A DNA stretch of 64,000 nucleotides from positions 1 to 64,000 of IMG/VR virus record IMGVR_UViG_2713896905_000004. One strand, given 5' to 3'. A model generated the notes under the pieces. It saw nothing but the letters and a program-made list of their open reading frames with translations, was not told where the DNA came from and did not search any database. Shown here one piece after another: positions 54,762-55,502 of this stretch. The position numbers were made by a program, and so were the translations under genes. The DNA is from a virus (Duplodnaviria; Heunggongvirae; Uroviricota; Caudoviricetes). How positions within the stretch are numbered: the stretch's first letter is position 1; every line of letters begins with the position of its first letter.

Positions 54762-55039
54762 TTGTTAATCCTCAAAACTTTATGCCCGGGCGCAAAAGCA
54801 CGCGTTTTGTCTTTGCTTATTCGCCAGCCATCCTTGCGCGCCTCTTTTGCACAGCCAGCCCATGACGTACCTATATACTCACCGAAGTCTGGCGACTTAT
54901 ATTTGCCATCTGTACACTGGAGGCAATCACAATAGAGATGCATGGTGTAACTTGCAGCGATAGCCATATCACTCTCCTTTAGTGCGCAAGTGGTTTTTCC
55001 AGCGGTTTTGCGCCGCGCTGGGCTTTTTGCAAAAACCAC
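54758..55039 (-). CDS. small Cys-containing protein (93 aa)
   Basis: 'CALKESD...CDCLQCTDGKYKSPDFGEYIGTSWAGC'; overlaps upstream gene. Confidence 0.4.
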   Translation of the reverse strand: MVFAKSPARRKTAGKTTCALKESDMAIAASYTMHLYCDCLQCTDGKYKSPDFGEYIGTSWAGCAKEARKDGWRISKDKTRAFAPGHKVLRINK

Positions 55040-55502
55040 AATCCATCATCCCGTAATATTTCATCAACCCCATCCGTCGGTTGCTGAGTCTCACCCACTG
55101 CCAGACGCCAGGAGCGTTTCTACGAACTAACAGAATCTTTGCTTTACGGTTTTTCATCTTACAGCGTACCCTTTCTTCCGCCTGTTCTGTGACGCAGTAG
55201 GCTTACGCTTTGCGGCAAAAGCCACCTGACCAAATGGATGGAGTACCGCTATCTTATGGTTGCTAATAACCAGCTCCACCACACGCACAGGTCGCTGTAA
55301 AAAAAGTCGTTTTGCCTTACGGTTTTTCATCGCTTTGCTCTCCTGCGTCTCTTTGCTGCTCGTCGTGCCGCTGCAATACCGGTATGGCGGCGCTTTGGTG
55401 CCGGGATGATGTTGTCAGCCATCAGGACATACGGCTTTGCAATTAGCGCAGAAGCCCAAAAACGAGTCGGGTACGGTAACAAGCCGATACATGCCACACG
55501 CA

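Follow-up and report, generated by a model that had tools for sequence, protein, structure and literature searches.

Three Predicted Small Basic Genes, Two of Them with a Shared Start Sequence, in an Accessory Block of a P1-Like Phage-Plasmid

Introduction

Two adjacent small ORFs on the minus strand of a 64-kb stretch of viral DNA (the whole of which is called the window here) begin with nearly the same sequence. The locus raises the question of whether this shared start is a repeated regulatory element, the trace of a local duplication, or part of the coding sequence of two related genes, and whether the small ORFs are genes at all. An earlier sequence-only reading of the window had described three minus-strand mini-ORFs of about 58–62 aa in an "ORF-poor gap," two of them with MKNRKAK starts, and had offered a repeated small-gene unit or a repeated regulatory element as explanations.

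Layout of the Locus

The lengths and starts of the three ORFs given by that reading were correct, and the stop of ORF3 overlaps the start of ORF2 as it had described. The gap is only apparent: ORF3, ORF2, and ORF1 tile 54969–55503 completely, with zero gap, from the Ea22-like gene to the 69-aa gene ORF0, and the stretch is fully coding (table 1). The gene order on the minus strand is Ead/Ea22-like, ORF3, ORF2, ORF1, ORF0, and DUF551, and the junctions are, in this order, TAATG, ATGA, ATGA, TGAtATG, and ATGA. The ORF3 start overlaps the Ea22 stop in the first of them, the ORF3 TGA overlaps the ORF2 ATG in the second, the ORF2 end overlaps the ORF1 start in the third, and ORF0 begins 1 nt past the ORF1 stop in the fourth. 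Shine-Dalgarno sequences were found for ORF3, ORF2, and ORF0; ORF1 has only a weak one (GTAAG), and its start sits in the ATGA overlap. No promoter-like or terminator-like sites were detected within 54969–55503 by a promoter/terminator scan. We read this stretch as three translationally coupled protein-coding genes on one polycistronic minus-strand message.

Table 1. Features of the locus, with positions in the window.
Feature	Position	Strand	Description
Ead/Ea22-like gene	55503-56261	-	PF13935, E = 4e-27; context gene, usual upstream neighbor
ORF3	55327-55503	-	58 aa; phrog_13831; pI 12.0; GLLPYP.RFW motif conserved; Arg-rich C-terminal tail PAPKRRHTGIAAARRAAKRRRRAKR
ORF2	55154-55330	-	58 aa, MKNRKAKRLFL...; phrog_1380 upstream paralog, "ISNHK" subtype; tail ...QNRRKKGYAVR; pI 12.0
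ORF1	54969-55157	-	62 aa, MKNRKAKILLV...; phrog_1380 downstream paralog, "SNRR" subtype; tail ...SAAQNRWKNHLRTKGE; pI 11.3
ORF0	54758-54967	-	69 aa, Cys-containing; phrog_926; context gene, outside the repeat
DUF551 gene	53538-54761	-	Downstream of ORF0
Repeat copy 1	55138-55158		TTTGCTTTACGGTTTTTCATC as read on the + strand; ORF1 start region; codes for M-K-N-R-K-A-K and includes 1 nt before the ATG
Repeat copy 2	55311-55331		TTTGCCTTACGGTTTTTCATC as read on the + strand; ORF2 start region; 20/21 identical to copy 1
ORF1 C-terminal box	54969-55025	-	KPSAAQNRWKNHLRTKGE plus stop; 57 nt; contains the Shine-Dalgarno of the next gene
Shine-Dalgarno of ORF3	55510-55516		AAGGAGG
Shine-Dalgarno of ORF2	55340-55344		AGGAG
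Shine-Dalgarno of ORF0	54974-54979		AAGGAG; inside the ORF1 C-terminal box

Across many otherwise different prophage contexts, ORF0 is the usual immediate downstream partner of members of phrog_1380, the family of ORF1 and ORF2, and therefore the two may work together. The ORF0 protein has cysteines at positions 13, 15, 18, and 39, and searches of Pfam, NCBIfam, and PDB sequences with it gave no match. A 12-nt inverted repeat was also seen in the 3' part of ORF1 (54990–55001 and 55028–55039, 11/12 complementary, with a 26-nt loop); it was taken as a chance occurrence, one of its arms lying in the variable center of the gene.

Protein Families and Predicted Fold

ORF1 and ORF2 both match the phrog_1380 profile (E = 1e-40 over positions 1–62 of 62 and E = 6.5e-23 over positions 1–60 of 62, respectively), while ORF3 matches that of phrog_13831 (E = 1.1e-41, positions 1–58 of 58). 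In BLASTP, ORF1 and ORF2 are 37% identical over their whole length (E = 5e-10), and their DNA is saturated (pS ~0.7) outside a 21-nt head and a short C-terminal box. By these comparisons they are old tandem paralogs and not the product of a recent duplication. The repeated small-gene unit of the sequence-only reading is thus recovered as a pair of tandem paralogs, with a 173-nt unit gained or lost whole between related phages; its local duplication, if meant as a recent one, is not borne out by the saturated DNA. Tandem pairs with other types of center exist in TL-2011c, phiV10, HEMP4, and metagenomic prophages. ORF3 was also considered as a distant relative of phrog_1380, which was rejected at an hhalign probability of 0.1%. 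Judged by profile comparison, ORF3 is unrelated to this family and equally basic.

The phrog_1380 family fell into 60 clusters when grouped at 90% identity, and a set of 1.84 billion proteins yielded 48 representatives of it at 50% identity. Its named sources were Enterobacteriaceae without exception, and from what these searches returned it is a narrow enterobacterial-phage family. The homologs of ORF3 formed 83 clusters, and the source organism names shown were all Escherichia.

From an alignment of 34 sequences, we derived three motifs of phrog_1380: an N-terminal M-K-N-R-K-A-K-x-L, a central [RK][ILV]SN[RH][RK], and a C-terminal SA[AS]QNR[WR]K. All three are present in both ORF1 and ORF2. 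In this alignment N3, R4, and R52 are invariant, S25, N26, A48, Q50, and N51 are at least 90% conserved, and there is little conservation between the motifs. The members are about 60 aa long with a net charge of about +14, and each of ORF1–ORF3 has 15–16 Lys plus Arg against 1–2 Asp plus Glu. One member, P0177, is a 196-aa protein made of the family domain and a C-terminal extension without a known domain.

Searches of Pfam, NCBIfam, and PDB sequences with ORF1–ORF3 and with divergent family members found no match. A small hydrophobic toxin or membrane peptide was rejected because none of the three has a membrane-spanning hydrophobic segment: the maximal Kyte-Doolittle values in a 19-residue window were 0.21, 0.96, and 1.24, and the GRAVY values −0.87, −0.53, and −0.22, for ORF1, ORF2, and ORF3, respectively. 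AlphaFold2, run on ORF1 with the family alignment, predicted an alpha-beta3-alpha arrangement (pLDDT 80.3, pTM 0.51; all five models 76–80), in which the conserved residues map to both helices and to the end of strand 1 together with its turn. The model is like a dsRBD (alpha-beta-beta-beta-alpha, about 65 aa) in length and in the order of secondary structures; as a fold assignment the dsRBD was rejected, with no support from structural superposition or profiles. The three-stranded-sheet DNA-binding domains of the lambda Int N-terminal arm-binding or AP2-like kind were rejected as well (hhalign probability 0.1%).

Evidence That the ORFs Are Coding

Among about 35–80 near-identical copies on viral contigs, the polymorphisms were biased toward third codon positions in ORF1 (9/16, binomial p = 0.05), ORF2 (11/16, p = 0.004), ORF3 (12/22, p = 0.03), and ORF0 (20/31, p = 4e-4). 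Five diverged family pairs differed at the three codon positions 62, 54, and 105 times (p = 9e-6). Based on codon alignments that were guided by the frame-0 protein alignment and carry a slight bias toward frame 0, the pN/pS of diverged family pairs was 0.31–0.54 in the annotated frame versus mostly 0.74–1.8 in the two shifted frames, with the low-divergence pair m4-m6 as an exception (0.36 in frame +2). For the pair m0-m8, the in-frame value was 0.35 and the off-frame values were 0.94 and 1.18; ORF3 had 0.20–0.45 in frame versus 0.85–2.7 off frame. Moreover, conserved residues persist across codon changes of more than one nucleotide, such as that of Arg52 from CGC to AGG, the start codon of ORF3 alternates between ATG and GTG among alleles, and a 21-nt in-frame deletion allele of ORF3 exists.

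Each small ORF was present or absent as a whole unit in the 90 loci compared. The arrangements, with F2 standing for the ORF2 copy and F1 for the ORF1 copy, were Ea22 > ORF3 > F2 > F1 in about 35 loci, Ea22 > ORF3 > F1 in about 33, and Ea22 > F1 in 7. In a 9NA-like phage ORF1 occurs alone, and the limits of the DNA match are the limits of the ORF. Searching the literature for their accessions and names turned up no study of these genes and no report of Ribo-seq or proteomics on them. From their patterns of substitution and segregation, we conclude that all three ORFs are genuine protein-coding genes.

Constraint on parts of these proteins is weak, as follows from frameshifted alleles and from a pN/pS of 0.5–0.9 in the centers of phrog_1380 members. 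In the members P0054 and P0060 the center is read in another frame, and the sequence then returns in frame. An ORF3 allele in which a frameshifted acidic tail replaces the Arg-rich tail is common (95 contigs, P0130), and P0126 is likewise a frameshifted database allele of ORF3. At the locus L067, a frameshift has reduced F2 to 22 codons while the ORF1 that follows it is intact, which exemplifies decay of the upstream paralog.

These ORFs might then be translated into peptides of little or no function, either as ribosome-coupling spacers against Rho-dependent polarity or as decaying remnants. The weakly constrained centers, the frameshifted alleles, and the truncated F2 would fit such an explanation, as would the free loss of copies, with ORF3 missing from the seven Ea22 > F1 loci and roughly half of all loci having a one-copy form. 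Nevertheless, the three motifs vary little or not at all among members with just 26–50% identity elsewhere, and members bearing them also occur in unrelated genomic contexts and in virulent phages. ORF1 moves as a self-contained module, its predicted fold is compact and consistent among models, and pN at the ends is 0.01–0.14 against a pS of 0.12–0.54. We therefore consider it unlikely that the peptides are spacers or remnants.

The Repeated Start Motif

The exact run common to the ORF1 and ORF2 starts is 15 nt long, TTACGGTTTTTCATC, at 55144–55158 and 55317–55331. The window contains it twice, and none of 100 shuffles contained it. This core extends to 21 nt at 20/21 identity, and the two copies are spaced 173 nt apart. 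The sequence-only reading had reported the same 17-nt start in both ORFs; a shared start does exist, with an identity of 16/17 and not in full, and the second copy had been placed 2 nt too far right (55316–55332), the ORF2 ATG being at 55330. No DNA repeat beyond the 21-nt head was found by a repeat search, and Tandem Repeats Finder returned nothing. The start motif alone is repeated at the DNA level; at the protein level, the similarity of ORF1 and ORF2 is significant over their full length.

The head varies across the family by synonymous changes only (AAA/AAG, AAC/AAT, CGT/CGC, and GCA/GCT). As far as the sequence can tell, the 21-nt repeated start is the coding sequence of the family's invariant N-terminus. 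The opposite explanation is that the motif is noncoding and regulatory (a repeated site for protein binding, an RNA element, or a cassette for translation initiation, for example) and that the mini-ORFs are incidental. The head DNA is unusually conserved relative to the gene centers (90–100%), and it is A-rich just 3' of the ATG, a composition that favors initiation in E. coli. However, a noncoding element does not sit well with head variation that is all synonymous or with whole ORFs under frame-specific purifying selection. The stretch had no relevant match in Rfam, no promoter or terminator signal, no tandem repeat at the DNA level, and no excess RNA structure (mRNA folding z = +0.49 vs. 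shuffles). The repeated regulatory element suggested earlier is therefore not upheld, and we regard a noncoding motif with incidental ORFs as extremely improbable.

Conserved Ends, Variable Centers, and Recombination

If the head is coding sequence, what accounts for its near-identity in genes whose DNA is saturated between the two ends? We compared ORF1 with eight relatives from other phages. Their heads were 90–100% identical to that of ORF1 at the DNA level, and their 57-nt tails were 88–98% identical in 7 of the 8 (63% in L098), versus centers of 41–59% identity in 7 of the 8 (73% in L090). Synonymous divergence was 0.12–0.54 at the ends and 0.44–0.91 in the center. The C-terminal box alone was matched by isolated megablast hits in E. 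coli genomes (H111 and H112).

Ends and centers do not always travel together. The members m8 and m37 have an identical center (pS 0.00) and different ends (pS 0.46), and the pairs m8/m37 and m5/m36 together include identical centers with different ends and the reverse. One body can also bear either of two tails, ...GYAVR before another family copy and ...WKNHLRTKGE before ORF0. The one-copy alleles are the two-copy form of the window minus exactly the 173 nt between the two heads. The single head of L011, L015, and L083 is chimeric: codon 5 is the ORF2-type AAG, whereas codon 7 is the ORF1-type AAG. Another 16 loci combine the upstream flank of ORF2 type (GAGAGCAAAGCG) with a head that is ORF1-type throughout. 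In our interpretation of these alleles, the chimeric heads and the exact 173-nt deletion are direct products of recombination within the repeated start.

We propose that the 21-nt head and the C-terminal box serve as short homology patches, at which recombination deletes or adds the whole 173-nt gene unit and re-assorts gene centers with gene ends. A boundary-sequence model of phage mosaicism, in which homologous recombination takes place at short conserved sequences at gene borders, is already known (summarized in PMC3233612). The present case agrees with it: a diverged interior lies between short conserved stretches of DNA at the two ends of the gene, the recombinant junctions are located within these patches, and modules are exchanged at gene borders. 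It differs in that the phrog_1380 patches are themselves coding sequence, that of the conserved N- and C-terminal motifs, and are not intergenic linkers. In addition, the tandem copies of the patch permit deletion of a unit.

Alternatively, the genes could be real and their near-identical heads and tails due to nucleotide-level constraints only (start context, Shine-Dalgarno sequence, and stop/start overlap), with no recombination. The next gene does have its Shine-Dalgarno sequence and its overlap within the tail, and the type of tail tracks the downstream neighbor, as the ...GYAVR and ...WKNHLRTKGE forms illustrate. On the other hand, constraint of this kind does not produce chimeric heads, an exact 173-nt deletion allele, or the same centers with different ends and the reverse. 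The W-type tail keeps its 88–98% identity in L003, L006, and L097, where an unrelated gene comes next, and at 57 nt the conserved tail extends far beyond the needs of a Shine-Dalgarno sequence. Constraint as the only cause is thus quite improbable. Recombination at the patches remains our preferred explanation; overlapping constraints, from the initiation region and from the Shine-Dalgarno sequence that serves the next cistron, probably help to conserve the ends alongside it, in shares that are not separable, and the low synonymous divergence at the ends could come partly from nucleotide-level constraint and not from recombination alone.

Genomic Context, Distribution, and Annotation

The ORFs lie in a lambdoid "ea" block on the minus strand at about 53538–57720, which contains the Ea22-like gene, DUF551, and several small ORFs, and which is flanked by pap/pmgS homologs from about 57915. 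Over the 1.1-kb stretch around the ORFs, identity is 100% to E. coli plasmids (NZ_CP043337 and NZ_CP100487, among others) and 99.3% to phage RCS47. [quoted passage not shown] The window is a P1-like phage-plasmid, and the ORF block is lambdoid early-left "ea" accessory cargo in one of its variable regions.

A chromosomal prophage of E. coli (H101) also has the stretch from ORF3 to ORF1 at 100% identity, and the 1.1-kb query matched the Stx2c phage Stx2_EH1904 at 99.6% identity over 82% of its length. Such near-identity of sequence indicates that lambdoid prophages and P1-like elements have exchanged DNA recently. The 535-nt stretch was found in 602 of 5426 complete E. coli genomes, at 418 chromosomal and 297 plasmid places, and the same or near-identical sequences occur in P1-like plasmids, Stx phages, and other lambdoid prophages. 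A search of a one-genome-per-species collection gave a single match, an ORF2-type copy on the 228-bp contig JQCU01000388.1 (L009) labeled Acinetobacter idrijaensis, which most likely represents contamination of that assembly.

The family always occurs within strings of small accessory genes. In prophages of the lambdoid and P22-like kinds, its members stand between recombination genes (RecT, Erf/SSB, and YqaJ) or Ea22 on one side and DUF551/int on the other, and in some virulent phages they are found in comparable small-gene strings. Members in virulent or nonlambdoid phages were seen in the 9NA-like phage AVIO78A (L008), in the Vequintavirinae phage Av-05 (L104), and in L102 and L103. Av-05 also carries a remnant of ORF3 truncated to 21 codons.

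The window genes are members of the catalogued families, and no difference was found from phrog_1380, phrog_13831, WP_000797279, WP_001261538, RCS47 gp057, phiV10 p50/p51, or VT2-Sakai orf8. The profile matches are full length and highly significant, the families are annotated as "unknown function," and the calling of ORFs is inconsistent among records. ORF1 is identical to the RefSeq hypothetical protein WP_000797279 and ORF3 to WP_001261538. The incomplete PLSDB gene table of NZ_CP100487 (L001) lists ORF1 and ORF3, and in the RefSeq record of RCS47 (L002) ORF2 alone is called, as gp057. In VT2-Sakai (L005), orf8 is a 155-aa ORF in which F1 is extended 93 codons upstream across ORF3 in another frame, and calls extended or fused in this way appear to underlie phrog_12350 and phrog_9263.

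Overall Reading and Possible Function

Taken as a whole, the locus is probably best explained by three coupled coding genes, ORF1 and ORF2 being old phrog_1380 paralogs and ORF3 unrelated to them, that are carried as lambdoid "ea" cargo and shaped by recombination at heads and tails. In lambdoid phages, going by position and general knowledge, the genes would be made from the early-left transcript, while in this plasmid they would be made from the message of the pmgS-pap operon.

Small basic early proteins occur in the early-left operons of lambdoid phages, and lambda N is an Arg-rich RNA-binding peptide. The proteins studied here are alike in their small size and very high positive charge, the family also occupies, in lambdoid prophages, the early-left accessory region between recombination genes and int/xis, and ORF3 likewise ends in an Arg-rich tail. 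The ORFs have no sequence or profile similarity to any named protein, and the resemblance to lambda N-type proteins is therefore one of kind only. Substitution patterns place purifying selection on the basic, polar termini of the family, where it is concentrated. Because the net charge is about +14 and conserved Asn, Arg, Gln, and Lys stand on a scaffold that is otherwise free to vary, we tentatively suggest that the proteins bind nucleic acid, or another acidic conserved target, and act as early host- or phage-modulating factors, a putative function that we hold possible but somewhat doubtful. According to the AlphaFold2 model, phrog_1380 proteins would contact such a target through the basic and polar residues of the two terminal helices and the tip of the beta-hairpin.

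A more specific proposal is that the family is a fast-diversifying effector in phage–host or phage–phage conflict, for example in antidefense or exclusion. The basic termini would then hold a fixed target, the beta-sheet center would be swapped like a cassette by head/tail recombination, and "ISNHK" and "SNRR" pairs would work together. At least 10 types of center within one narrow host range, the separate histories of ends and centers, and the recurring pairs with different centers are consistent with this proposal, whereas a center pN/pS below 1 and the lack of any link from the family to defense speak against it. We give it little probability.

The genes are already catalogued, are identical to many public records, and form a typical phage accessory operon; this locus shows no sign of an unusual mechanism. 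Just two features are mildly notable: the pattern of conserved ends and variable centers, in which the 21-nt head is a site of recombination, and the succession of three extremely basic mini-proteins. As a clean small example, the locus illustrates how gene copy number and mosaics are reshuffled at a 21-nt homology patch within coding sequence. The correction of the apparent gap means that all three ORFs merit annotation, current RefSeq records calling different subsets of them. About 11% of complete E. coli genomes have the trio, and its carriers include Stx prophages as well as P1-like phage-plasmids with resistance genes. Given this wide presence in E. coli, the function of these basic early proteins is of some interest.
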